Sequence record: MK962752
Source of the DNA: Shigella phage JK23
Reading direction: 5' to 3' (one strand)
DNA length: 64,000 nucleotides
The position numbers were made by a program, and so were the translations under genes. Positions within the stretch are counted from its first letter, which is position 1. Each line of letters begins with the position of its first letter. Of the stretch, positions 3,640 to 61,235 are shown piece by piece. The notes beneath the pieces are model-generated. The model saw nothing but the letters and a program-made list of their open reading frames with translations, was not told the DNA's origin and did not search any database.

Positions 3640-5058
3640 TTATGGATAGGTATAGATGATACCAGTTTCTAAAGCAGTTTTATGAATGATGTATCCATTA
3701 CGCGATTCTTGAACATCAACTTCTGGATAGTCTTTCATCATCTTCTGAAGAGTGTAACGATGTAGGTAATATTTACTATCTGGGTCGTCAGTTTTCCAAT
3801 CTTTACCTTCTTCGGTCATTTTTTGGATTTCATCCATAACCCACCAACCGCACCAGATATAAGCTGAAGTACGATGTGGAAGAGGATGAACATAAGGTAG
3901 TTCACCTTCTGGTTCTGGAGCAACTTTATCAGTTACCTGAACTTGACCTTCTGCTGTAATAGTTTTGCTATCGTAATCAGTTGCAGTAACGACAGCAGTA
4001 ACTTCAATAGTTTGACTTCCAACAGATGAGGTATCGACAGTATATACGTTAGTTGACCCTTCTACAGGAGAAGAATCTTTCTTCCATGAGTAAGTAATTT
4101 GTGCTTCTTCTGGAGCACCCGTAACATTAGCCGTAAATGTAGCCGAAGCATCTTGCTGAACATTAATAGAAGGAGGAGTCAATGTAACCTGTGGATTCAT
4201 TGTCTTCTTATTAACTGTCAATGATACTTCATTAGAAGTAACTTCCTTTTCATTGTAATTTTCAGCAGTTACTTGAGCTACGCATTTAATTCTTTTTACT
4301 CCACTTGTAGTTGGAGTATAGTTAAATGTAGAGTTAGTTTCTCCACCAATTTGTGAATCATCTACATACCACTGATACGTAGCAGACGCTCCATCAGGTT
4401 GAGAAGCTAAGGCAGCAGTAAATTGAACTGGGGTTCCGATTACTCCCGCTGGAGGACTATCAGGAGTTACTGCCAAAGTAGTTGTCTGCGTCTTTTTATT
4501 AACAGTCAGTGACACTTCATTGGAAGTAACTTCCTTTGTATCATAATCTGTCGCGGTTACTTGAGCTACGCACTTAATTGTTTTAACTCCGCTTGCGTCA
4601 GGAGTGTAATTGAATGTAGTGCTAGTTGCTTCGCCCACAGGAGAACCGTCAACGTACCATTGATACGTAGCGTTTGCACCTGATGGCTGTGAAGCTAAGG
4701 CAGCGGTAAATTCAATTGGAGTTCCAATCACTCCAGCATCAGGGCTACCAGGAGTTACTGCCAAAGTAGTTGTTTGTGTCTTATTTTGAACTGTGATAGT
4801 TGTACTAATTTCAGCTGTTTCAGGTTCAGATTCTGCAACTTGATTGGTTGCAACTACTTTAATAGTCTTTTGACCGGCAGGTCCTTTTAGTACATAACTA
4901 AAAGTTGCTGACGTTTCTTCCTGTGGAGCGTCGTCTACAGTCCAAGCATATGTAATAGTTCCGCCTCCAGTTTCACCACTGGGTGTAGCAGTAAACTGCT
5001 TAGTTTCATCAATAACCCCTGTCGGTGTTTTAGGAGTTATATCAACTGTAAAAGTCAT
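3640..5058 (-). CDS. hoc: highly immunogenic outer capsid protein Hoc with four Ig-like domains
   Basis: 472 aa; N-terminus MTFTVDITPKTPTGVIDETKQF and C-terminal capsid-binding domain as in T4 Hoc; two adjacent ~96-aa Ig-like units nearly identical. Confidence 0.9.
   Translation of the reverse strand: MTFTVDITPKTPTGVIDETKQFTATPSGETGGGTITYAWTVDDAPQEETSATFSYVLKGPAGQKTIKVVATNQVAESEPETAEISTTITVQNKTQTTTLAVTPGSPDAGVIGTPIEFTAALASQPSGANATYQWYVDGSPVGEATSTTFNYTPDASGVKTIKCVAQVTATDYDTKEVTSNEVSLTVNKKTQTTTLAVTPDSPPAGVIGTPVQFTAALASQPDGASATYQWYVDDSQIGGETNSTFNYTPTTSGVKRIKCVAQVTAENYNEKEVTSNEVSLTVNKKTMNPQVTLTPPSINVQQDASATFTANVTGAPEEAQITYSWKKDSSPVEGSTNVYTVDTSSVGSQTIEVTAVVTATDYDSKTITAEGQVQVTDKVAPEPEGELPYVHPLPHRTSAYIWCGWWVMDEIQKMTEEGKDWKTDDPDSKYYLHRYTLQKMMKDYPEVDVQESRNGYIIHKTALETGIIYTYP
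4208..4783 (-). repeat. in-frame tandem repeat (2 x 288 bp, diverged copies) inside hoc
   Basis: Unit at 4208-4495 aligns with 4496-4783; encodes duplicated Ig-like domain. Confidence 0.8.
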
Positions 5059-5798: not shown

Positions 5799-7310
5799 AT
5801 GACTGACATTAAAGTACATTTTTATGATTTTAGTCACGTGAGAATTGATTGCGAAGAAAGTACATTTCATGAACTCCGTGATTTCTTTAGCTTTGAAGCT
5901 GATGGGTATCGTTTTAATCCGAAGTACAAATATGGCCACTGGGATGGACGAATTCGTCTTTTAGATTATAATCGCCTTCTTCCATTCGGTTTAGTCGGGC
6001 AAATTAAAAAGTTCTGCGATAACTTTGGCTATAAAGCCTGGATTGACCCACAGATTAACGAAAAAGAAGAATTATCAAGAAAAGATTTTGATGAATGGCT
6101 TTCTAAATTAGAAATCTATTCAGGAAATAAAAGAATTGAACCGCATTGGTATCAAAAAGATGCAGTGTTCGAAGGATTAGTTAATCGTCGTAGAATTCTT
6201 AATCTTCCAACATCCGCAGGTAAATCTTTAATTCAAGCTTTGCTTGCTCGGTATTATTTGGAAAATTATGAAGGCAAAATTCTTATCATTGTTCCAACAA
6301 CTGCTCTAACAACTCAGATGGCTGATGACTTCGTTGACTATCGTTTATTCAGTCATGCAATGATAAAGAAAATTGGTGGCGGAGCATCAAAAGATGATAA
6401 ATATAAAAATGATGCACCAGTCGTTGTTGGTACATGGCAAACTGTAGTAAAACAACCGAAAGAATGGTTCTCACAGTTTGGAATGATGATGAATGATGAA
6501 TGCCATCTTGCTACAGGAAAAAGTATTTCATCTATCATATCAGGTTTAAATAACTGCATGTTCAAATTTGGTCTATCTGGTTCATTACGTGATGGCAAAG
6601 CCAATATCATGCAGTATGTTGGAATGTTTGGTGAAATATTTAAGCCAGTAACGACTTCTAAGTTAATGGAAGATGGACAAGTAACTGAGCTAAAAATTAA
6701 TAGTATTTTTCTTCGCTATCCCGATGAGTTCACTACTAAATTAAAGGGAAAAACTTATCAAGAAGAAATAAAAATTATTACGGGGCTTAGTAAAAGAAAT
6801 AAATGGATCGCTAAATTGGCTATTAAGCTTGCACAAAAAGATGAAAACGCTTTTGTCATGTTTAAACATGTATCACATGGTAAAGCTATTTTCGATTTAA
6901 TTAAAAATGAATACGATAAAGTTTATTACGTATCAGGGGAAGTTGATACCGAAACCCGCAATATAATGAAAACCTTAGCTGAAAATGGTAAAGGAATAAT
7001 TATAGTAGCTAGTTATGGTGTATTTTCTACTGGTATTTCAGTTAAAAATCTGCATCACGTTGTTTTAGCACACGGTGTTAAATCTAAAATTATTGTATTG
7101 CAAACAATAGGTCGCGTATTACGTAAACATGGTTCTAAAACAATCGCAACAGTCTGGGACCTCATAGATGACTGTGGTGTCAAGCCAAAATCTGCTAATA
7201 CTAAAAAGAAATATGTTCACTTGAACTATCTTTTAAAACACGGCATTGATCGTATTCAGCGCTACGCAGATGAAAAATTTAATTACGTAATGAAAACAGT
7301 TAATTTATAA
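5799..7310 (+). CDS. uvsW: UvsW RNA-DNA and DNA-DNA helicase
   Basis: 503 aa; SF2 helicase motifs (PTSAGKS Walker A, DECH box); matches T4 UvsW. Confidence 0.92.
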   Translation: MTDIKVHFYDFSHVRIDCEESTFHELRDFFSFEADGYRFNPKYKYGHWDGRIRLLDYNRLLPFGLVGQIKKFCDNFGYKAWIDPQINEKEELSRKDFDEWLSKLEIYSGNKRIEPHWYQKDAVFEGLVNRRRILNLPTSAGKSLIQALLARYYLENYEGKILIIVPTTALTTQMADDFVDYRLFSHAMIKKIGGGASKDDKYKNDAPVVVGTWQTVVKQPKEWFSQFGMMMNDECHLATGKSISSIISGLNNCMFKFGLSGSLRDGKANIMQYVGMFGEIFKPVTTSKLMEDGQVTELKINSIFLRYPDEFTTKLKGKTYQEEIKIITGLSKRNKWIAKLAIKLAQKDENAFVMFKHVSHGKAIFDLIKNEYDKVYYVSGEVDTETRNIMKTLAENGKGIIIVASYGVFSTGISVKNLHHVVLAHGVKSKIIVLQTIGRVLRKHGSKTIATVWDLIDDCGVKPKSANTKKKYVHLNYLLKHGIDRIQRYADEKFNYVMKTVNL

Positions 7311-15836: not shown

Positions 15837-15840
15837 CAAT

Positions 15841-15870
15841 GGGGACCGAAAGGTCCCCATATTTTTATTT
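15841..15870 (+). terminator. rho-independent terminator after gene 54
   Basis: ggggacc-gaaa-ggtcccc hairpin followed by atatttttattt. Confidence 0.75.
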
Positions 15871-16155
15871 ACGGAATGAAATGAAAGCAGAAACTGAAGC
15901 AACTAAACTGTCTTCAATATAAACTTCAATTTTTACCGGAGCTTCTGACTCAAATTTACCTGTTACTACACCTTGGAAAATGCTTTCAGTCTGTTCTGGT
16001 TTTGAAAAATTTTCAGAAGGAAAAATTCCGAACTTTTTATCTGTTCCAAAAATTTTAATAAATTCATCGTAAACTGCTTCATTAAAAGCATTATCAGCAG
16101 GAATAACGCCTTCAACGACGAGCTCTTGGCCTAAAAAGCGTAAAGAAGATTTCAT
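15865..16155 (-). CDS. hypothetical protein (T4 alt.-3 position)
   Basis: 96-aa ATG ORF downstream of an early promoter. Confidence 0.6.
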   Translation of the reverse strand: MKSSLRFLGQELVVEGVIPADNAFNEAVYDEFIKIFGTDKKFGIFPSENFSKPEQTESIFQGVVTGKFESEAPVKIEVYIEDSLVASVSAFISFRK

Positions 16156-16162
16156 TTTGTGT

Positions 16163-16216
16163 TCCTCATGTTATGTCAGTAAGACTACTATAACACAACA
16201 CGAGGGACTTGTAAAC
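16163..16216 (-). promoter_or_regulatory. T4-type early promoter (54-bp element, copy A)
   Basis: Minus strand: GTTTAC, 18-nt spacer, TATAGT; identical 54-bp element recurs at 32133-32186. Confidence 0.65.
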
Positions 16217-18273
16217 TACATTTTGAACTTTTTAGACATTCCGTTGATGTTAACCAAAGAAGCTAATATTTGAGAAACTTCGTTTTCCTCTTCTTTTGAT
16301 TCTTCTACAAGGAATTGATTAAATCCAGCCATTGGACGAACTTCACCAGTTTCCATTAAATGGTCGCCATCATATACTGATTCTTCTAATTGGTCAGAAG
16401 GAGGAACGATTGTACCTTCGATTAGATACTTGTTATAAGCAGTTTCTTTCATAAAGTACGTACTTACTTTATTAATCTTTAGTAAAATTCCGCGCGGTAG
16501 AATAACTTCAGCTTCTGATGGAAATCCTGATAAATGACCCGGAACGATAACTTTGATTCGCTCAGCTCCTTTAATTACCATACCCACGCTAGTTTCAGCA
16601 TCTTCATTAGCATATGTAGAATGACTACCCATATGCATCAAATCTTCTGCATCAACAGAACCTTCTCCTTCGCCAGAAAATACTGCACCGGAATCATCTA
16701 GAGCCATATAGTTTTTACCATGCTCACCGAAGATATTTGGTTTAAGCGATGTCGATACGAAGTTCTTGAAATAGAACATTTTGTTTTCAATGTTATGACG
16801 CAAAGTTTTAAAGGTAACTTCTTGTCCACGATAAAGCGTAGTTCCTGGAGGAAGAACTGAACCTTTAGCGAATGCAGAATCCAACGTCTCAATGTGCTTA
16901 ATAGCTCGTTCCATATATTCTTCACGGGTAGAATCTGGTTTACCCAAAAGGAACGAGTTCATTTCAACATATGAATCTGCACAATAATCTTCAATTACAT
17001 CAGACTCAGCCTGAGTCAGTCCTTTTGGAGTTACTTCAGTGCTTGCGTATTCATATGCCTGAGCAGCAGATTCATTAATCAATTTATAAATGCCATTCAT
17101 GACAAATTGAATAATAGCTGTCTTTTCATCTGGCGTAGCTTTAGAACCTTTAACCAAATCATTGATAATTTTCTTAATAACATCAAAGCTATTAGAAATA
17201 TTAATATCAGCAAGATCGCTTAAAATTTTATCAGTTTTATAATCAAAGAATTCTTTATTCTTTAAATATTCTTGAGAACCTTGATATGTTATATCGCTCT
17301 GCAACTTGATAGATGGATCACGTAAACGTGCATGGGCCAATGCAATATGATTTCGGAAGTTTTCTAGTTCATAATCGCTAGATTTAAAACGAGAAGCACT
17401 TCTCATACCACCGATAGCTCCTTTGCCGAAGTTTGAACCAATCTGGATAACGCCAGAGTTCATCGGACCTTCTGCTTTATATACCGGAACTTTAGATTCA
17501 AACTCTTGATATTTCTTGGCAGCGAAGCCATCACCCTGAAGTGAAGCATCGACAGTAGAATATTGAGCTTGTGCTGCTAATCGACGACTAATTTTAGTTT
17601 TTTGAATAACAGCTTGATCCGTGCGCTTATCATTTTCTAAAGCAATAGAAGCAGCAACAGCGACAGCTTTAGGAACAGCATTACCTGTTTTAACATCTAC
17701 ATAAACATCACCGACCTTTGATTCAACTTTTGTGAATAACTCGGTTGAAATAGGAGGTACACCTGGAATGTCTTCTAAATTGGCATTTTTACGGTAAACC
17801 ATAATATATGCGTACTTTTTATCATAGTCCCAGATTTCCTTTAAAAGAACATATCGACCTGCTCCTTTAGTACGTACTAAACGGTCAGCAATAACTTGCA
17901 TTTGACGAGCTGCGCCATTTGTTTTACTTTTTAGTACGCGGAATAGACATGCGTCGATTTTATACTGTTTCATTGTTTGAAGAGCAGTATCAAAAACGGC
18001 ATTAATGACACCAATTGGATTTCCACCCAAGTTTTTAAGCTTAACTAATGATAGTTTCTCATTAACACCTATCATTACGATATGCATCATTTTATCGCCT
18101 GGTTTAACGTTTTTATTCGTATCACCACCAGAGGTGTATGTACAAAATCTAAATCCAGGAAGCACGCTTTCTTCGCCGGCTTGAATAGCAAAAATTTGTG
18201 GTATTTTATGCTTAGGATTTAAGTTAACAACCGGCGCCGAAGCGCCGTCAAATAATTCTGTAATAAGTTCCAT
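16216..18273 (-). CDS. Alt-like ADP-ribosyltransferase paralog, packaged internal head protein
   Basis: 685 aa; N-terminal MELITELFD capsid-targeting-like sequence; ART R-S-E pattern (YRGQ ... FVSTSL ... EAEVILPRG). Confidence 0.8.
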   Translation of the reverse strand: MELITELFDGASAPVVNLNPKHKIPQIFAIQAGEESVLPGFRFCTYTSGGDTNKNVKPGDKMMHIVMIGVNEKLSLVKLKNLGGNPIGVINAVFDTALQTMKQYKIDACLFRVLKSKTNGAARQMQVIADRLVRTKGAGRYVLLKEIWDYDKKYAYIMVYRKNANLEDIPGVPPISTELFTKVESKVGDVYVDVKTGNAVPKAVAVAASIALENDKRTDQAVIQKTKISRRLAAQAQYSTVDASLQGDGFAAKKYQEFESKVPVYKAEGPMNSGVIQIGSNFGKGAIGGMRSASRFKSSDYELENFRNHIALAHARLRDPSIKLQSDITYQGSQEYLKNKEFFDYKTDKILSDLADINISNSFDVIKKIINDLVKGSKATPDEKTAIIQFVMNGIYKLINESAAQAYEYASTEVTPKGLTQAESDVIEDYCADSYVEMNSFLLGKPDSTREEYMERAIKHIETLDSAFAKGSVLPPGTTLYRGQEVTFKTLRHNIENKMFYFKNFVSTSLKPNIFGEHGKNYMALDDSGAVFSGEGEGSVDAEDLMHMGSHSTYANEDAETSVGMVIKGAERIKVIVPGHLSGFPSEAEVILPRGILLKINKVSTYFMKETAYNKYLIEGTIVPPSDQLEESVYDGDHLMETGEVRPMAGFNQFLVEESKEEENEVSQILASLVNINGMSKKFKM

Positions 18274-18276
18274 GAT

Positions 18277-20373
18277 TTATCCTTGAACGAACTTGTAAGG
18301 CATGTTTGTAATATCTATGCAAGACGCAATAATTCCAAGAGATGATTCTACTTTCTGTTTAACATTTGATGAAACAAATGATGCAAAGTCAACTCTGTCT
18401 TCTACTTCAATATCACCTGTCATTGCAACTACTTCGCCGGTTTCCATTAGATGGTCACCGTCATAAATTACCGATTCGGTGAGTTCTTCTGTGGTCATAA
18501 CTTCAGCTTGAATAAGTTTTGTATTATTAGATGTTGTTCCGTCATTATTAGAAGCATCAGTTATTTTATTAACTTTAACCATCAATCCGCGCGGTAGAAT
18601 AACTTCAGCTTCTGTTGCTATTCCGAGACTTCCTGGATATACAACATTAACTTTATGAGCTCCATCAATTGCCCATCCTATTTGAACTTTAACGTATTCA
18701 GGATTTTCTTTATACGCTCTTATTTCGTTTGGATTAATAGTTATTCCTTCTTCATTTTTATCAACTGTTAATTCATTGCGAGCTTCTGGTTCTAAAAGAC
18801 CAATACCAGCATGTGTAATTCCAAAACGTCCAAAAATGATAGGAGTTAAAGAAGTAGATACAAAATTTCTGAAATAGAACACTTTATTTTTAACTAGTGC
18901 TTCGTATATAGGAGCAGTCATACTTTGAGCACGATAAACTGTAATGCCTTCTGGTATACGGTCACCATTTTCAAAAGCTGAATCTAAATTATTTATAGCA
19001 GATTCAATTTCTTTTTCACTCATTATATCATATCGTTCTGGATTGTAACGACCTAAAAGAAGATTATTGATGTCTGTATATCCTGAACCACAATACTCTC
19101 TAATGCCGCGCTTTTGTGATGGAGTATATTTAGAACCATCACGGGCAATAGTAATATCAATCATTGGACCTGCACCAATTCCGGAAAAGCTATAAATCAT
19201 TCGTTTGAGGAATTTAGTTTTTGCTGCATTCCAGGCATTTTTAGTTATTTCTCCCCAGACTTCATCTGGCTGCCCTTTACGAGTTTTATTATGTTTATCA
19301 AGCCAATTATCTTTATATTCTTCAAATAATTGATTAACAGCTGCTGCGTATTTCTCTAAACATTTTATTGAAGTAGTTGGTTCATTTTTAATCGCATTAA
19401 GAATTACATCTTTAATTTTTTCTGAAACTTCACCGACTTGACTCATTGGAAAGAATTTATAATCATAGTGAAGTTCATCTGCCGTTCCTTCAGCAATAAT
19501 TTTTGCTGCCTTAGTTTTAGAAGCTAATGAATTAATTCCAAGCTTCATTTCTTCTGCTTCGGGAATTAAAGGTGCAGTAGCAGGTTTATTGAAATTAGCT
19601 GCGGTAGATTCATACTTCTGGAATAATTCACTTTCAAATCTAGAAGATTCCAATGACTGACTTTGTGCAATTGCTCTACGGGAAATTTTAACTTTAACGA
19701 TTACGGCTTGGTCAGAACGTTTATCGTTTTCTTGTGCAATAGATGCAGCAATTGCCTCATTTTTGGTTACTTGAGCTCCAGTATCTTTATTAATATAAAC
19801 ATCACCGACCTTCGATTCAACTTTAGTAAAGAGCTCGGTACTAATTTCCGGAACTCCTGGAATGTCTTCTAGTGATACATTTTTGCGATGTATAAGAATA
19901 TATGCATACTTTTTATCATAATCCCAGAGTTCCTTAAGAAGGACGTATCTGCCACCTGAACGACTACGGATAAGTCTATCAGCAATAACTTGAATTTGTC
20001 GAGCTTGGCCAGCAGTTTTAGACTTAAGAATACGAAGCATACAAGCATCAATTTTATACTGACGCATTGTTTGCATTGCAACAGTAAAAACTGAATTGAT
20101 ATAATTAATTGGGCTTGGACCAAGACCTTTTAATTTAGCAATTGAACCTTTAGCAGTTAATGTAAAAGGAACAATATGCATCATTTTATCGCCCATTTTT
20201 AAATCACGATTAGTATCACCTCCAGATGTATAGGTACATAAACGAAAGCCTGGTTGTTCAATTGCATCATCAACATGAACTGAAAAAATTTGTGGTATTT
20301 TCTTCTTTGGATTTAAGTTTGTAATCGGAAGAGTAGTATCTTCGTCAAATAATTCTGTAATGAGTTCCATCAT
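18277..20373 (-). CDS. alt: Alt ADP-ribosyltransferase (internal head protein)
   Basis: 698 aa; N-terminal MMELITELFDEDTTLPITNLNPKKKIPQIF; ART motifs YRAQ ... FVSTSL ... EAEVILPRG; adjacent to gene 30 as in T4. Confidence 0.85.
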   Translation of the reverse strand: MMELITELFDEDTTLPITNLNPKKKIPQIFSVHVDDAIEQPGFRLCTYTSGGDTNRDLKMGDKMMHIVPFTLTAKGSIAKLKGLGPSPINYINSVFTVAMQTMRQYKIDACMLRILKSKTAGQARQIQVIADRLIRSRSGGRYVLLKELWDYDKKYAYILIHRKNVSLEDIPGVPEISTELFTKVESKVGDVYINKDTGAQVTKNEAIAASIAQENDKRSDQAVIVKVKISRRAIAQSQSLESSRFESELFQKYESTAANFNKPATAPLIPEAEEMKLGINSLASKTKAAKIIAEGTADELHYDYKFFPMSQVGEVSEKIKDVILNAIKNEPTTSIKCLEKYAAAVNQLFEEYKDNWLDKHNKTRKGQPDEVWGEITKNAWNAAKTKFLKRMIYSFSGIGAGPMIDITIARDGSKYTPSQKRGIREYCGSGYTDINNLLLGRYNPERYDIMSEKEIESAINNLDSAFENGDRIPEGITVYRAQSMTAPIYEALVKNKVFYFRNFVSTSLTPIIFGRFGITHAGIGLLEPEARNELTVDKNEEGITINPNEIRAYKENPEYVKVQIGWAIDGAHKVNVVYPGSLGIATEAEVILPRGLMVKVNKITDASNNDGTTSNNTKLIQAEVMTTEELTESVIYDGDHLMETGEVVAMTGDIEVEDRVDFASFVSSNVKQKVESSLGIIASCIDITNMPYKFVQG

Positions 20374-20422
20374 ATCCTCTCTAGTGTTTATTCTATTTAT
20401 AAAATTAAAGGCCCGAAGGCCT

Positions 20423-20611
20423 TTAATAATCTATTGGTAAGAGAGTACGATATATTTCAAACTTTGGACCTTTTTCATAGGCATCAAAAGTTTCTGTGAA
20501 TTTATTATAAGCATATGCATCTATAAATTCAATCATGATTTGTGATACAGAAGTAGAAACATCTCCACCTTCTTTTTGAGCCACGACAATTGTTTCTAAG
20601 TAAGCTTTCAT
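20423..20611 (-). CDS. hypothetical small protein
   Basis: 62-aa ATG ORF; start overlaps gene 30 stop (ATGA). Confidence 0.55.
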   Translation of the reverse strand: MKAYLETIVVAQKEGGDVSTSVSQIMIEFIDAYAYNKFTETFDAYEKGPKFEIYRTLLPIDY

Positions 20612-24784: not shown

Positions 24785-25117
24785 TTATTTTACTACTTTC
24801 CAATGCTGCATGTCAAGTTTACCAACTTTTTTCATCTTCTCAATTAAGCGTTCGGCACGTTGGCGAGCTGTAACATAATACCATTCACCTAATTCATTTT
24901 GTTCAATTTTTCCAACGATTACTGTATTCAATTCATAAATCCAACCAGTAAAGAAATTATGAACTTGAATTGTAAAGGTGAAATCTGTTCCCATACCTTC
25001 TGTTGTTTCTACTTCAATAATATCACCTTCAACTGCCATTAAGAACCACATAGTTTCATCATATTTACCATTGAAGCATTTAGTTTTAACTGCAGCGTTC
25101 AGATTAATCGTTTTCAT
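24785..25117 (-). CDS. hypothetical protein
   Basis: 110-aa ATG ORF. Confidence 0.6.
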   Translation of the reverse strand: MKTINLNAAVKTKCFNGKYDETMWFLMAVEGDIIEVETTEGMGTDFTFTIQVHNFFTGWIYELNTVIVGKIEQNELGEWYYVTARQRAERLIEKMKKVGKLDMQHWKVVK

Positions 25118-25187
25118 TTTATTCTCCTTTGTTTGTGTAAGATAATACTATCACAAAGGAACCATACTGTAAACAACTTTATGCAAT

Positions 25188-28806: not shown

Positions 28807-28868
28807 TTCAATTTCCTCATTTGTTTTGGTAGAGCTATAATATCACAACTCTACCGTAAAGTAAACTA

Positions 28869-31281: not shown

Positions 31282-31631
31282 TTAGAAAGGTCCTGGATGT
31301 CTTCTGCGAACTTGTTGAAGGAGTTGTTGATTTGTTTTTCAACCAATCCTGGCTTACGAGCCACCACATCCGCCTTCTTTGCATCTTTGCGCAGTTTTTC
31401 ATTTTCACGCTCAATAGCAGCAATCGCCTCACGATTTTTATTATTCATCGCATCAATATAATTATACTGAATTCGCAAATTATTTAATGCTAAGGCGTTT
31501 TCATTGGCTGTTTTTGTAATTTCAGTAACTGATGTTTCTAATCTTTCTACCTTATTTTTTAAAATAATAGATGTTCCGCCAAATGCTATTACAAGTAATA
31601 GCAATCCAGCTGTAAAATTACTTAATTGCAT
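31278..31631 (-). CDS. pseT.3: i-spanin (inner-membrane coiled-coil lysis component)
   Basis: 117 aa; N-terminal transmembrane helix then coiled-coil-like periplasmic region. Confidence 0.75.
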   Translation of the reverse strand: MQLSNFTAGLLLLVIAFGGTSIILKNKVERLETSVTEITKTANENALALNNLRIQYNYIDAMNNKNREAIAAIERENEKLRKDAKKADVVARKPGLVEKQINNSFNKFAEDIQDLSK

Positions 31632-32128
31632 AAAGTTTTAATAACCTCTATAATATCGTCTTGAGAAAGACCGTTAATTAAAATATGATGTTCAGCCGGA
31701 GATTTAGAAATTTTAAAGCATGCCTCAACATCTTCTGCCATATCCGATGCGCTACGATTTGGATTACTAATTCCAAGACGATGTTTTCCCGTTAAAGGAT
31801 TAACGATGATATAGCATTTACAGTTGTTAATATGAACATTAGGTTGAGTCTGATTAATGAACACATCGCAATCATATTTCGCAAGCTGATTTTCTAAAAA
31901 GACTTTCATCTCTTCAACCGCATCAGGAAGCATATCACGGGCTTGCTCAAGACGACGATTTCGATATTCTTTAATGGTCGTTTTCCGCTTGACTTGCTTA
32001 GCTAAATCTTTCTTAAGATCGGTGATATATCCAACTCGACGGTTTCCTTTAAATACAGAAATCCCATCTGTAGTATCACCGTATGCTTCAACGACCATTT
32101 CAGTAGTAATGAGCTGCAAATCCATCAT
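31622..32128 (-). CDS. alc: Alc, inhibitor of host transcription
   Basis: 168 aa; size and position between spanins and rnlA as in T4. Confidence 0.75.
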   Translation of the reverse strand: MMDLQLITTEMVVEAYGDTTDGISVFKGNRRVGYITDLKKDLAKQVKRKTTIKEYRNRRLEQARDMLPDAVEEMKVFLENQLAKYDCDVFINQTQPNVHINNCKCYIIVNPLTGKHRLGISNPNRSASDMAEDVEACFKISKSPAEHHILINGLSQDDIIEVIKTLCN

Positions 32129-32132
32129 AAAG

Positions 32133-32186
32133 TCCTCATGTTATGTCAGTAAGACTACTATAACACAACACGAGGGACTTGTAAAC
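32133..32186 (-). promoter_or_regulatory. T4-type early promoter (54-bp element, copy B) upstream of alc
   Basis: Identical to 16163-16216; GTTTAC, 18 nt, TATAGT on minus strand. Confidence 0.65.
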
Positions 32187-32189
32187 AGC

Positions 32190-33777
<1,588 letters not shown>

Positions 33778-41349: not shown

Positions 41350-41379
41350 ATAGTACCATGGAAGGACAAGGATGTAAAC
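41350..41379 (-). promoter_or_regulatory. T4-type early promoter with A/T-rich UP element
   Basis: Minus strand GTTTAC, 18 nt, TACTAT; same module recurs at 57889-57918 and 61924-61953. Confidence 0.6.
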
Positions 41380-50441: not shown

Positions 50442-52361
50442 ATGGCTACTTTAAAACAAATACAATTTAAAAGAAGCAAAACTGCAGGTCAACGTCCTGC
50501 TGCTTCAGTATTAGCCGAAGGTGAATTGGCTATAAACTTAAAAGATAAAACAATTTTCACAAAAGATGACTCAGGTAGTGTTATAGAATTAGGTTTAAAA
50601 TATGGAGGAACAATTGATGGTTCTTTAACTGTTAATGGAAATATAATTGGAAATTTAACAGGTAACGCTGCAACTGCAACGAAATTAAAAACAGCACGAA
50701 AAATTAATGGTATATCCTTTGATGGGTCAAAGGATATCACGCTAACTCCATCTGACATAAATGTCAATAGCACAACATTTATAAAAAATAATGGCGAATT
50801 ACCTGTTGATGCTAATTTAGATGAGTATGGGCCTGTTGAAGAATATCTTGGTGTTTGGTCGAAAGCAACTTCAACCAACGCTCAACCAGCAAATAAATTT
50901 CCAGAAGAAAATGCTGTAGGTGTGCTAGAAGTATTTGTGGCCGGTCAATTTGCTGGTACTCAGAGATATACAACTAGATACGGAAATGTTTATATTCGTT
51001 CCTTGACTGCTACATGGAACGGAGTAAATGGTCCGTGGAGTGTGTGGCGAAATATTCAATCCGGTACTCGTCCACTGTCAACAACAATTGATCTTAATGA
51101 TCTAGGAGGCGCTGAACACTTTGGTTTGTGGCGAAATAGTTCAAATTCCATTGCTACCTTTGACAGAAATTTCCCAGAAGAGGGGTCGTCAGCTCAAGGT
51201 CTTTTGGAAGTATATGAAGGTGGAAACTATTCTCGTACACAAAGATATACAACCAGATTTGGTGTTGTATATACTCGTTGTCTTGCTGCCGCGTGGGATG
51301 CTTCCGCGCCTAAATGGGGACCGTGGCAACAAGTCGGTAATGTCACACCAGCGACTTTCTATGACGGAGATCTGAATGATTTTAAAACCCCTGGGTTATA
51401 TAATATTTTAGGCACTGATGCCGTTATTAACTGTCCTACAGGTGAAGGTTTGCCGACTGTTATTGTTGGTTTGCTGGAAGTTAAACAACGTGCTTCTGGC
51501 GGTGCTATTTTCCAAAAATTTACTACTGCCGGAACGGGTGCAACTACTCGCGATCGTATTTTTGAGCGTGCATATACTGGTGGTGTGTGGGGTGCATGGA
51601 ACGAAGTATATACATCTTACTCTCTGCCAATTACTTTAGGTATGGGTGGTATTAAAACTCAATTAGCGGAGCTAGATTGGCAAACATTTGATTTTGTTCC
51701 TGGTAGTATGTTTAGCGTTCCTTTGAACAAAATAAAGAACATGCCAGCTAATATGAATTGGGGCACGATTGACGGAAACTTAATTATGTTTTCTGTTGGT
51801 CCTAGCGAGCACACCAGCACAGGACGTACTGTTCAGGTTTGGCGTGGAACTGTATCCCAGACAAACTATCGTTATTTTGTCGTTCGTGTGTTCGGTAATT
51901 CTGGAAATAGAACTTGCACAGTTCGCCGTGTTGTTCTTGAAGACGGATCACATACTTGGACTGCTCAACAAAACTTTAGGGGATTGCTGAATATCACTGC
52001 TGCTGTTAATCTTGGTGCTAATCAGAAAATTTCACTTGCTCCAGGAGCATATATTCAAGCCCCTGCTAGCGGTTCTGGTTCTAATACTTACGCAAATCAG
52101 AATACTACCATTGCGCCATTATATCAGGCTATTGACGATTCAAATAAAAACCAGTTTGCGCCAATTGTTAAACAGAAAAATACTGTAAGTAATATCACCT
52201 TTGCCACTGGTATGGCTATAGGTACATCCGAATATAAGATCATTGCTCAGGGTGATTTATCCGCTGATGGAACAGCAGATGGGTTAAAACAGTGGACTTT
52301 CATGCCGTCAGGTTATTTTAAATCTCCAGGGCGTGTATATGTCATTATATCAGGCTATTGA
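50442..52361 (+). CDS. 37: long tail fiber distal subunit gp37, 5' part; frame broken by a 226-bp tandem duplication
   Basis: N-terminus [13 protein letters not shown] as in T-even gp37; frame ends at TGA 52359-52361 inside the second repeat copy. Confidence 0.75.
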
Positions 52362-52569
52362 CGATTCAAATAAAAACCAGTTTGCGCCAATTGTTAAACA
52401 GAAAAATACTGTAAGTAATATCACCTTTGCCACTGGTATGGCTATAGGTACATCCGAATATAAGATCATTGCTCAGGGTGATTTATCCGCTGATGGAACA
52501 GCAGATGGGTTAAAACAGTGGACTTTCATGCCGTCAGGTTATTTTAAATCTCCAGGGCGTGTATATGTC
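52118..52569 (+). repeat. perfect direct tandem duplication, 2 x 226 bp, inside gene 37
   Basis: 52118-52343 is identical to 52344-52569; 226 is not divisible by 3. Confidence 0.9.
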
Positions 52570-53613
52570 GGTGATGCGTTCCTTAATACAGATGGTAATA
52601 TTGCCGGTTCAATCTGGAAGAAATATAACAATGCGACAAATTTAGATGCTGCCTTGAATACTCGCGTAGGTAAAGGCGGTGATACGATGACAGGTCGGTT
52701 AACAATCAATGCACCTAATGATTCTATTGTATTATCAACGACTGCTAGTAATTCTTTGCATATTCGTGGTGACATAGACGGGACTGGTAACTGGTATATT
52801 GGTAAGGGTGGTGCTGATAATTCGCTAGCATTTTATAGCTATGCTTCTCAGGCGGCAGTACATATCACAAACAATGGTGAGATTGCGTTAAACCCGCAAA
52901 ATACCGCAATGGTTAACGTTAACCGTGACCGTGTACACATTAACGGTTCTGGATGGATTGCTAGACAACCGGGTGATTGGGGCAACCAATGGCGAGTAGA
53001 AGCTCCATTATTCGTTGATCATGGTTATGTTTCACAGGATTGTTATTATCCTATTCTTAAAGCAAGAAGCGTTATAACCAATCAAGGATATAGCACCGCT
53101 GTTGACTTTGGTATGCGTCGTATTCCATCACAGTGGGGGCAAGCAATCATTCGTGTCGGATCCACGGAGGCTTCTCCTGATGCTGGACACCCACAAGCTA
53201 TATTTGAATTCCATCATGATGGATTCTTTTATACACCAGGAAATGGTAGCTTTAGCGATGTGTATATTCGTTCTGACTCCCGTCTCAAGATTAATAAAGA
53301 AGAATTAGAATATGGAGCGGTCGAAAAAGTTTGCCGACTGAAAGTTTATATTTACGATAAAGTTAAGTCTATTAAAGACCGTAGTGTTATTAAACGTGAA
53401 GTTGGTATTATTGCTCAGGACCTTGAAAAGGAATTACCGGAAGCTGTATCTAAAGTTGAAGTTGATGGATCTGATGTTCTGACAATTTCTAACTCTGCTG
53501 TGAATGCTCTTTTAATTAAGGCTATTCAGGAAATGAGTGAAGAAATTAAAGAATTGAAAACGCCTCTCTTTACTAAAATTGCTCGCAAAATTAGTAAATA
53601 TTTTAAATTCTAA
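52333..53613 (+). CDS. 37: long tail fiber distal subunit gp37, 3' part (in frame only downstream of the duplication)
   Basis: Track ORF (GTG start) resumes gp37 frame; C-terminal domain carries an SDxRxK motif like intramolecular-chaperone autoproteolysis sites. Confidence 0.65.
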
Positions 53614-61056: not shown

Positions 61057-61170
61057 TCACATAAATCCAAAGTAAGCGTTTAATACATCAATCATTAAAA
61101 CGATTGGGAATATACTCAAAACTACTAGTATTATAACTACATTCCATATAGCTTTAACAATCTTTTTCAT
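61057..61170 (-). CDS. small membrane peptide, 37 aa
   Basis: ATG with GGAGG Shine-Dalgarno downstream of an early promoter; track ORF extends upstream through the promoter. Confidence 0.45.
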   Translation of the reverse strand: MKKIVKAIWNVVIILVVLSIFPIVLMIDVLNAYFGFM

Positions 61171-61235
61171 TTTCTGTTCCTCCGTAGTTGATAGAGTAAT
61201 AATACCACAGAGGAACAGTCTTGTAAACAACTTTT

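Follow-up and report, generated by a model that had tools for sequence, protein, structure and literature searches.

In bacteriophage T4, the genes e, soc, 49 and I-TevI are controlled by a promoter within a hairpin: on long upstream transcripts the Shine-Dalgarno sequence or the start codon is sequestered, and a promoter in the hairpin DNA gives a translatable RNA without the 5' arm (PMC3014915). In this type of control, the internal promoter is late and the block prevents premature early translation. Phages RB49 and phi1 carry promoter-early stem-loops (PeSL), i.e. intergenic cassettes that begin at the stop codon of the upstream gene, end at the Shine-Dalgarno sequence and start codon of the downstream one and combine a strong sigma-70-like early promoter with a stem-loop; the latter frequently includes G-T pairs and commonly overlaps the -10 or falls within the -35/-10 interval. 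PeSLs are repeated in the genome and have been implicated in modular exchange (Arbiol et al. 2010, PMC2839356). Here, we describe an exact 54-nucleotide (nt) direct repeat in a 64,000-nt stretch of DNA from Shigella phage JK23 (sequence record MK962752; hereafter, the window), in which one copy (copy A) precedes a homologue of alt.-3 and the other (copy B) precedes alc, the gene for an inhibitor of host transcription. Each copy carries an early promoter, the spacer of which is predicted to pair with the downstream Shine-Dalgarno sequence in RNA that enters from upstream.

The closest mechanism is the promoter-in-hairpin control of e, soc, 49 and I-TevI. As in those cases, a stable helix is predicted to sequester the Shine-Dalgarno sequence, which forms the 3' arm, and the 5' arm lies upstream of the inferred transcription start, such that promoter transcripts would be made without it. 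Unlike in those cases, the promoter is an early sigma-70 promoter, the anti-Shine-Dalgarno sequence is its own -35/-10 spacer, and the RNA predicted to be silenced is the later one. Thus, the internal promoter is late at neither copy and the temporal logic is reversed; moreover, the late-promoter motif TATAAATA was found neither in nor beside either copy. The list of cases in the review of this mechanism includes neither alc nor alt.-3, and alc is not mentioned there (PMC3014915; the statement extends to that review and not to earlier work on T4, among it the genome review of 2003).

The layout is also that of a PeSL, with an early promoter as well as a stem-loop in a stop-to-start cassette and the stem over the -10, as in a described subclass. 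However, PeSL stems are typically GGGG...CCCC, have been read as terminators or attenuators and leave the Shine-Dalgarno sequence outside the 3' end of the stem (PMC2839356), whereas here the 3' arm is the Shine-Dalgarno sequence and no U-tract follows. Similarly, PeSLs flank orphan open reading frames (ORFs) in hyperplastic regions (PMC2839356), whereas copy B serves the conserved alc; copy A serves the non-essential alt.-3 beside the variable alt region. In total, we judge that what is added here is a conserved anti-Shine-Dalgarno hairpin together with the transplant of a cassette, as a variant of T4 mechanisms that are already known.

The repeated cassette upstream of alt.-3 and alc

The window belongs to a Tequatrovirus (T4-like) and best matches Shigella phage CM8 and Escherichia phage G4498, with 99.3-99.6% identity. 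A preliminary description of this DNA had reported an identical 54-base-pair (bp) element twice, 16 kb apart and in direct orientation. The exact match was found again at 16163-16216 and 32133-32186, both on the plus strand and with a spacing of 15970 bp, while a third copy with three or fewer mismatches was not found in the window (0 expected from 100 shuffles). A search of other T-even genomes, which the same description had proposed as a check, gave two matching places each in T4, in T2, in T6 and in the majority of some 500 Tequatrovirus-like records with a match. Because the same pair recurs in T4, T2 and T6 as well as in records numbering in the hundreds, we rejected chance and an assembly artefact as origins of the repeat.

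The two copies, the genes that they serve and their promoter elements are as follows.

16163 to 16216, minus strand: copy A, the 54-nt cassette upstream of the alt.-3 homologue; exact repeat, sense position 1 at 16216 and 54 at 16163
32133 to 32186, minus strand: copy B, the 54-nt cassette upstream of alc; exact repeat, sense position 1 at 32186 and 54 at 32133
15865 to 16155, minus strand: alt.-3 homologue, 96 amino acids, DUF5498/phrog_1739, 99% identical to T4 Alt.-3; served by copy A
31622 to 32128, minus strand: alc, inhibitor of host transcription, T4-homologous start codon at 32125; served by copy B
16210 to 16215, minus strand: -35 hexamer TTTACA of copy A, unchanged in all 30 Tequatrovirus copies examined
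16187 to 16192, minus strand: -10 hexamer TATAGT with TGn of copy A, contributing to the top of the lower stem, the internal loop and the upper stem of the hairpin
32180 to 32185, minus strand: -35 hexamer TTTACA of copy B, from the promoter scan
32157 to 32162, minus strand: -10 hexamer TATAGT with TGn of copy B, from the promoter scan

The genes that flank the repeat (alt paralogue, alt.-3, rnlA and alc) are all on the minus strand. The neighbours of copy A are the second Alt-like ADP-ribosyltransferase gene (ORF 16216-18273) and the alt.-3 homologue, and the first base of this copy (16216) is the G of the TAG stop codon of the alt paralogue; copy B starts 3 nt past the stop codon of rnlA, ahead of alc. 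Each intergenic gap of 60-61 nt (60 nt at copy A) is almost wholly occupied by its copy, with the -35 and the Shine-Dalgarno sequence marking the exact limits of the identity between A and B. The repeat is exactly one unit of promoter, leader and ribosome-binding site.

On the sense strand, the element, numbered 1-54, reads GTTTACAAGTCCCTCGTGTTGTGTTATAGTAGTCTTACTGACATAACATGAGGA. Positions 2-7 are the -35 TTTACA, 8-24 a 17-nt spacer that ends in TGn, 25-30 the -10 TATAGT and 50-54 the Shine-Dalgarno sequence GAGGA, ahead of which lies a leader of ~13 nt. The reading of the minus strand in the preliminary description (GTTTAC, 18 nt, TATAGT) is equivalent to TTTACA, 17 nt and TATAGT with a TGn extended -10, and its assignment of an early, sigma-70-type promoter to both genes holds: TTTACA-17-TGnTATAGT matches the sigma-70 early consensus at 10 of 12 positions at both copies. 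The canonical T4 early 'uber' promoters (UP/-35/TGn/-10) likewise consist of GTTTACA, a 17-nt spacer, TGn and TAnnnT (PMC2988021). The window contains about ten similar promoters; other early promoters in it share 64-82% of their sequence over ~55 nt and have spacers that differ, whereas the 54-nt pair is identical through the spacer, leader and Shine-Dalgarno sequence; the A/T-rich UP-like upstream regions lie outside the repeat and differ between the two loci.

GAGGA is located 7 nt before the AUG of alt.-3 and 7 nt before the T4-annotated AUG of alc (32125), i.e. 4 nt before the first in-frame alc AUG (32128). From the spacing to the -10, we infer that transcription starts near sense position 37, ~7 nt past the -10, which corresponds to positions near 16180 (A) and 32150 (B). 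In T4, alt.-3 and alc are both classed as early at the RNA and the protein level (PMC9697503, supplements), and this published timing fits active early promoters at both copies. We conclude with high confidence that the repeat is a functional early promoter and ribosome-binding-site cassette. T4 alt.-3 itself is non-essential and uncharacterised (PMC11618068); that paper, on CmdTAC, concerns the alt.-3 coding sequence only.

An AUG inside CAUGAGGA opens a mini-ORF of 4-5 codons in both copies (16153-16169 and 32126-32139, minus strand), and its UGA overlaps an AUG of the start region as AUGA, namely the alt.-3 start at copy A and, at copy B, the alc AUG at 32128, which is 3 nt upstream of the T4-annotated start. 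We rejected the mini-ORF as a functional element: it is without a Shine-Dalgarno sequence of its own and is not kept in other genera and is, therefore, probably incidental.

The predicted spacer-to-Shine-Dalgarno hairpin

In RNA that covers the whole cassette, sense positions 12-25 (spacer and first base of the -10) are predicted to pair with 40-53 (leader and GAGG), and 28-31 with 36-39. The resulting 18-bp hairpin has a folding energy of -23.0 kcal/mol (z-score -4.67) at copy A and -24.4 kcal/mol (z-score -4.38) at copy B, and none of 200 dinucleotide shuffles folded as stably. Its arms are located as follows.

16192 to 16205, minus strand: 5' (anti-Shine-Dalgarno) arm of copy A, sense 12-25; spacer CCCUCGUGUUGUGU and U25 of the -10
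16164 to 16181, minus strand: 3' arm of copy A, sense 36-53; leader and Shine-Dalgarno sequence, with GAGGA at 16163-16167
32162 to 32175, minus strand: 5' (anti-Shine-Dalgarno) arm of copy B, predicted structure
32134 to 32151, minus strand: 3' arm of copy B, predicted structure, with GAGGA at 32133-32137

Three of the pairs are G.U and would be C.A mismatches on the opposite strand; therefore, the structure fits sense-strand RNA and not a DNA cruciform. At gathering thresholds, the window contained no match to any Rfam family.

The predicted probability that the Shine-Dalgarno sequence is paired with the spacer arm in read-through RNA is 0.80 at copy A (four of five bases) and 0.97-1.0 at copy B. 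Because the 5' arm lies in the spacer and -10, upstream of any start of the cassette's own promoter, RNA from this promoter is without the 5' arm. The computed cost of opening the region from the Shine-Dalgarno sequence to the AUG in read-through RNA is 10.0 kcal/mol for alc and 12.3 kcal/mol for alt.-3, compared to 2.3 and 4.5 kcal/mol, respectively, in own-promoter RNA; opening energies were used in place of the unpaired probability, which is misleading for alt.-3 own-promoter RNA owing to a weak 5-bp local helix. For the identity of the two copies, the preliminary description had offered recent gene conversion or a shared regulatory input beyond sigma-70 recognition. The second of these is supported: the spacer and leader carry a shared feature, i.e. 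an anti-Shine-Dalgarno hairpin in addition to an identical leader and Shine-Dalgarno sequence.

RNA is expected to enter both copies from upstream. The sources of this RNA and the signals that border it are as follows.

16216 to 20370, minus strand: two Alt-like ADP-ribosyltransferase genes, directly upstream of copy A; expected source of read-through RNA
32190 to 33350, minus strand: rnlA (gp63), with 3 nt between its end and copy B; expected to supply read-through RNA to alc
20394 to 20401, minus strand: late-promoter motif TATAAATA, closely preceded by a terminator hairpin (about 20403-20426) and closely followed by the alt genes
15839 to 15860, no strand assigned: bidirectional intrinsic terminator between gene 54 and alt.-3, which ends the alt/alt.-3 transcription unit

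Our scan found no terminator between either upstream gene and its cassette, and alt is a late gene in T4 (PMC9697503). With a late promoter upstream of alt and no terminator in between, late alt mRNA should cross copy A into alt.-3, and the motif at 20394-20401 is the likely origin of this RNA. Similarly, rnlA RNA, or RNA from further upstream, should cross copy B into alc. In T4, the alt.-1 and alt.-2 RNAs are middle, while rnlA has an early RNA and a late protein (PMC9697503, supplements); set against the early alt.-3 and alc, these middle or late classes of the genes next upstream also agree with initiation at both copies. Just upstream of rnlA, at the end of denA, there is a middle-promoter candidate with a MotA-box-like sequence (TGCTTCC, 13 nt, TACTAT with TGn; 33341-33366, minus strand); rnlA, alc and alt.-3 are all without an entry in Table 1 of middle promoters in Hinton 2010.

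From these features, we propose that the cassette is self-contained, with a strong sigma-70 promoter, a leader of ~13 nt and GAGGA 7 nt before the start codon. In RNA entering from upstream, i.e. late alt mRNA at copy A and RNA from rnlA or beyond at copy B, the spacer and -10 would pair with the leader and Shine-Dalgarno sequence, and the 18-bp hairpin would mask the ribosome-binding site. By contrast, RNA from the cassette's own promoter would start ~7 nt after the -10, in the loop or 3' arm of the hairpin, and leave the ribosome-binding site accessible. Synthesis of Alc and Alt.-3 would then depend solely on the immediate-early transcripts of the cassettes themselves, and later read-through RNA would yield neither protein. 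We hold with moderate confidence that the hairpin probably restricts translation to own-promoter RNA in this way.

The same design is found upstream of alc, with stems that differ in sequence, in Dhakavirus (JS98), Gelderlandvirus, Karamvirus, Jiaodavirus, Bragavirus and Winklervirus. In these six genera, the order is GTTTACA, a spacer led by the anti-Shine-Dalgarno sequence, the -10, and a complementary leader with the Shine-Dalgarno sequence; examples of the stems are UCUCCGUUUAGUU/AACUAAACGGAGA, UCCUCAUCAG/CUGAUGAGGA and AACCUCUCAUUUU/AAAAUGAGAGGUU. The hairpins each have z-scores between -3.2 and -5.7, and the alc Shine-Dalgarno sequence has an unpaired probability of at most 0.03 in read-through RNA versus 0.36-0.78 in own-promoter RNA. 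Moreover, RNAalifold on a plain MAFFT alignment recovered the spacer-to-Shine-Dalgarno helix, with compensatory double changes in 7 of 11 pairs. Paired cells amounted to 85%, compared to 71% in shuffles (0/500 as high) and 40-56% with slid partners, and the covariation score was 0.52, compared to 0.24 in shuffles (0/500).

Other early promoters of the window were compared with the cassette. Among the ~ten strong ones, two have an anti-Shine-Dalgarno spacer of unrelated sequence: the promoter with its -35 at 61227 (~61170-61228, minus strand; 15-bp stem, -23.2 kcal/mol), before a membrane-like ORF of 37 amino acids, and the promoter with its -35 at 25173 (~25117-25174, minus strand; 9-bp stem, -12.1 kcal/mol), before an ORF of 110 amino acids. 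A partial case has its -35 at 41378, and the promoters with the -35 at 28865 and 24781 have hairpins over the -10 with the Shine-Dalgarno sequence outside; apart from the two and the partial case, the promoters examined either form hairpins of this kind, without the Shine-Dalgarno sequence, or form no hairpin. Because the Shine-Dalgarno sequence is not paired with the pre-start sequence in six of the ~ten, the anti-Shine-Dalgarno pairing is no by-product of the promoter consensus.

Within Tequatrovirus, we analysed 30 copies from 15 sources. All variable sites fall within sense positions 11-34 or at position 40. Nucleotide diversity (pi) is 0 to 0.018, and thus essentially nil, in the -35 and in the 3' arm with the Shine-Dalgarno sequence, whereas it is 0.03-0.09 in the spacer, -10 and loop compared to 0.02-0.03 in flanking coding DNA. 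We accordingly rejected unusual conservation of all 54 bp, as the spacer, -10 and loop are as variable as the flanks. All natural variants retain a hairpin of -17 to -24 kcal/mol, and frequent changes in the 5' arm are C-G to U.G and G.U to A-U. The alc copy of phage ECO95 1-6-1 has an extra T after GTTTACAAGT, which gives an 18-nt spacer and is the sole indel in the 30 copies.

These data bear on two alternatives to masking. The repeat could be a duplicated strong early promoter with its ribosome-binding site and nothing more, the internal complementarity being incidental; T4 early promoters have an extended consensus, so that partial similarity between them is normal (PMC2988021), and a rate of change in the spacer, -10 and loop close to that of the flanking coding DNA also speaks for it. 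However, a hairpin far more stable than shuffles at both copies, the same helix at alc in seven genera with differing stems and significant covariation, and the six promoters without such pairing all argue against it, and we consider it unlikely.

We regard it as similarly improbable that the stem-loop is mainly a transcription attenuator or terminator that insulates the downstream gene, as proposed for PeSL, although such a role would be compatible with masking. Stem-loops that overlap the -10 are common among the PeSLs of RB49 and phi1, and the reduction of lacZ expression by one PeSL stem-loop was about equal to that by the rrnB T1 terminator (PMC2839356). Against this stand the terminator scan, which flagged neither hairpin, and the sequences that follow: a U-run is absent after the hairpin of copy A (AACACAAAAUG), copy B has just UUUAU, and the orthologous alc hairpins of other genera likewise precede A-rich sequence. 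Moreover, a pure terminator need not always have the Shine-Dalgarno sequence as its 3' arm.

History of the two copies

In T4, the pair lies upstream of alt.-3 and alc, near 123.06 and 136.30 kb, 13.2 kb apart and identical at 53 of 54 positions. T4 alt.-1 and alt.-2 (6066-6451 of the T4 locus compared) are 95-98% identical to the N terminus of the second Alt paralogue, which is intact here (16216-18273); the spacing of 13.2 kb, compared to 16.0 kb in the window, is explained by the loss in T4 of most of this paralogue, of which alt.-1 and alt.-2 are remnants.

As judged from its distribution, the anti-Shine-Dalgarno design at alc is ancestral and has been kept across seven genera of Tevenvirinae, including Tequatrovirus. 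By contrast, another promoter, with a small intra-spacer hairpin and a free Shine-Dalgarno sequence, precedes alt.-3 in Mosigvirus (RB69), Dhakavirus, Marfavirus, Kanagawavirus and Moonvirus, while the flanks are orthologous and the ribosome-binding site ...ACATGAGGA is unchanged. The simplest history suggested by these comparisons is that an alc-type cassette replaced the alt.-3 promoter once, in the ancestor of Tequatrovirus. The junctions of this transplant would lie in motifs common to both loci, GTTTACA on the left and ATGAGGA on the right.

Similar pieces occur elsewhere. The alt.-3 spacer of JS98 (ACACCACAAGGATGTGG; 20036-20092 of the JS98 locus compared) is closely like the alc spacer of Mosigvirus (AACACCAAGGATGGTGA). 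In Mosigvirus APCEc01, the half with the -10, leader and Shine-Dalgarno sequence (TATAGTAGTCCTACTGAAACATGAGGAACACAAAATG; ~20008-20070 of the locus compared) precedes an unrelated ORF of 66 amino acids between ndd and denB; this half-element includes the flank that follows the Shine-Dalgarno sequence in the alt.-3 copy, and many Mosigvirus records have the same partial match. Judging from such matches, exchange of the cassette between these loci and genera looks general, and, as for PeSLs, the alt.-3 transplant and the cassette fragments at other genes in other genera fit modular exchange. Scans of IMG/VR with the Alc and Alt.-3 proteins gave 5-6 loci each and were of limited use.

The copies A and B of one genome differ by 0-8 nt in 13 genomes (0 here, 1 in T4, 5 in T2, 5 in T6 and 8 in ECO95), and there are no fixed differences between the two loci among the Tequatrovirus copies, but nor is there a sign that homogenisation is still under way. 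The exact identity in the window is simply one end of an ordinary distribution, with low divergence since the proposed transplant.

We think it very unlikely that ongoing gene conversion keeps the copies identical, or that the repeats matter as substrates for deletion, 16-kb circles or modular shuffling. A length of 54 bp is about the minimum homology for T4 recombination, as Singer et al. (1982) are cited in PMC2839356, and PeSL pairs of RB49 and phi1 recombine into mini-circles (PMC2839356). G32A is present in both T2 copies, and the parts of the cassette upstream of other genes in other genera also point in this direction. However, the mean distance between paralogous copies is 2.25 within a genome and 2.39 between genomes (permutation P=0.21, 12 genomes), and T2, T6 and ECO95 have visibly different copies. 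The recent gene conversion raised in the preliminary description is thus not supported, as the pair is found in most Tequatrovirus-like records and is, by this test, no more alike within than between genomes.

The 16-kb deletion that it had raised fares no better, since the interval between the repeats contains the essential genes 30 (DNA ligase) and 31 (co-chaperonin), in addition to rIII, cd and pseT, and the deletion product would be inviable alone; we therefore rejected a viable deletion, while recombination between the 54-bp repeats may occur at low frequency. Unlike the PeSL mini-circles, a circle between the two copies would comprise 16 kb, including these essential genes, and a 16-kb duplication would exceed the terminal redundancy of T4. 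With just two copies of the sequence in the window, there is no evidence for ORF shuffling by the 54-nt copies.

Two other repeats were observed in the window. A perfect tandem duplication of 226 nt (52117-52568; copies 100% identical) lies in a gp37-like gene for the distal subunit of the long tail fibre. Because 226 is not a multiple of three, the duplication breaks the gene into two ORFs (50442-52361 and 52333-53613) with matches to positions 1-509 and 608-1000, respectively, of the phrog_1699 profile; the duplication could be an assembly artefact or mark a genuine disrupted or variant receptor-binding gene. Moreover, two tandem 288-nt units with 77% identity (4202-4777), in a minus-strand ORF of 472 amino acids (3640-5058), are probably repeated protein domains.

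Proposed limitation of translation to early transcripts

Several observations weigh against translation limited to own-promoter RNA. Masking is a prediction, and we found neither a mapped transcription start at either copy nor a genome-wide T4 start-site map in the literature consulted. In alt.-3 own-promoter RNA, codons 3-4 (UCUUC) are predicted to form a weak pairing with the Shine-Dalgarno sequence, which brings the computed unpaired probability of the latter down to 0.02-0.2, although the structure has just -2 to -3.5 kcal/mol. Natural substitutions in the 5' arm mostly cost 2.7-3.6 kcal/mol and random substitutions cost 3.5 kcal/mol on average; because these values are close, selection on stem stability is not demonstrable within the genus. 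The covariation sample is small (8 sequences). Finally, Mosigvirus alc has a short hairpin inside the spacer alone and alc of VR7, Ac42 and phiAS4 is without the element; thus, the design is not indispensable.

An element for mRNA processing or stability (an RNase III-type site or a 3' stabiliser), or a translational-coupling device opened by terminating ribosomes, is the least probable of the alternatives and highly improbable: the 18-bp stem with its internal loop is near the size of an RNase III substrate and the upstream stop codons are just 0-3 nt before the -35, but cleavage is without direct evidence, the bases that pair with the Shine-Dalgarno sequence (sense 12-15) are 11-18 nt past the stop codons while a terminating ribosome, as judged from its footprint, unwinds ~5-9 nt past the stop and would not free it, and neither role explains the constant presence of the Shine-Dalgarno sequence in the helix.

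Alc has to act within minutes of the onset of infection, and alt.-3 comes last in a late transcription unit. If translation is limited to own-promoter RNA as proposed, a promoter spacer that masks its own ribosome-binding site on transcripts from elsewhere would couple translation compactly to a single promoter class and would add a post-transcriptional layer to the T4 switch from early to middle to late expression. It would also explain why the 54 bp move as a unit, and would offer phage engineering a simple rule by which genes can be insulated. In annotation, late RNA-seq coverage of alt.-3 or alc need not mean that the protein is made. The repeat itself is an old, genus-wide feature, and neither a recent event nor a deletion hazard.

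More tentatively, the Tevenvirinae may possess a class of 'early-only' insulators, in which an anti-Shine-Dalgarno spacer would keep a gene silent on middle and late read-through RNA. The class would be ancient at alc, would recur in unrelated sequence at further early genes (at least two others in the window) and would move as a unit between loci through recombination at the GTTTACA and Shine-Dalgarno motifs that they share, as at the alt.-3 copy of Tequatrovirus. If this is true, such insulators mirror the late-promoter-in-hairpin control of e and soc, and would be a general answer to the question of how early genes embedded in later transcription units are shut off.

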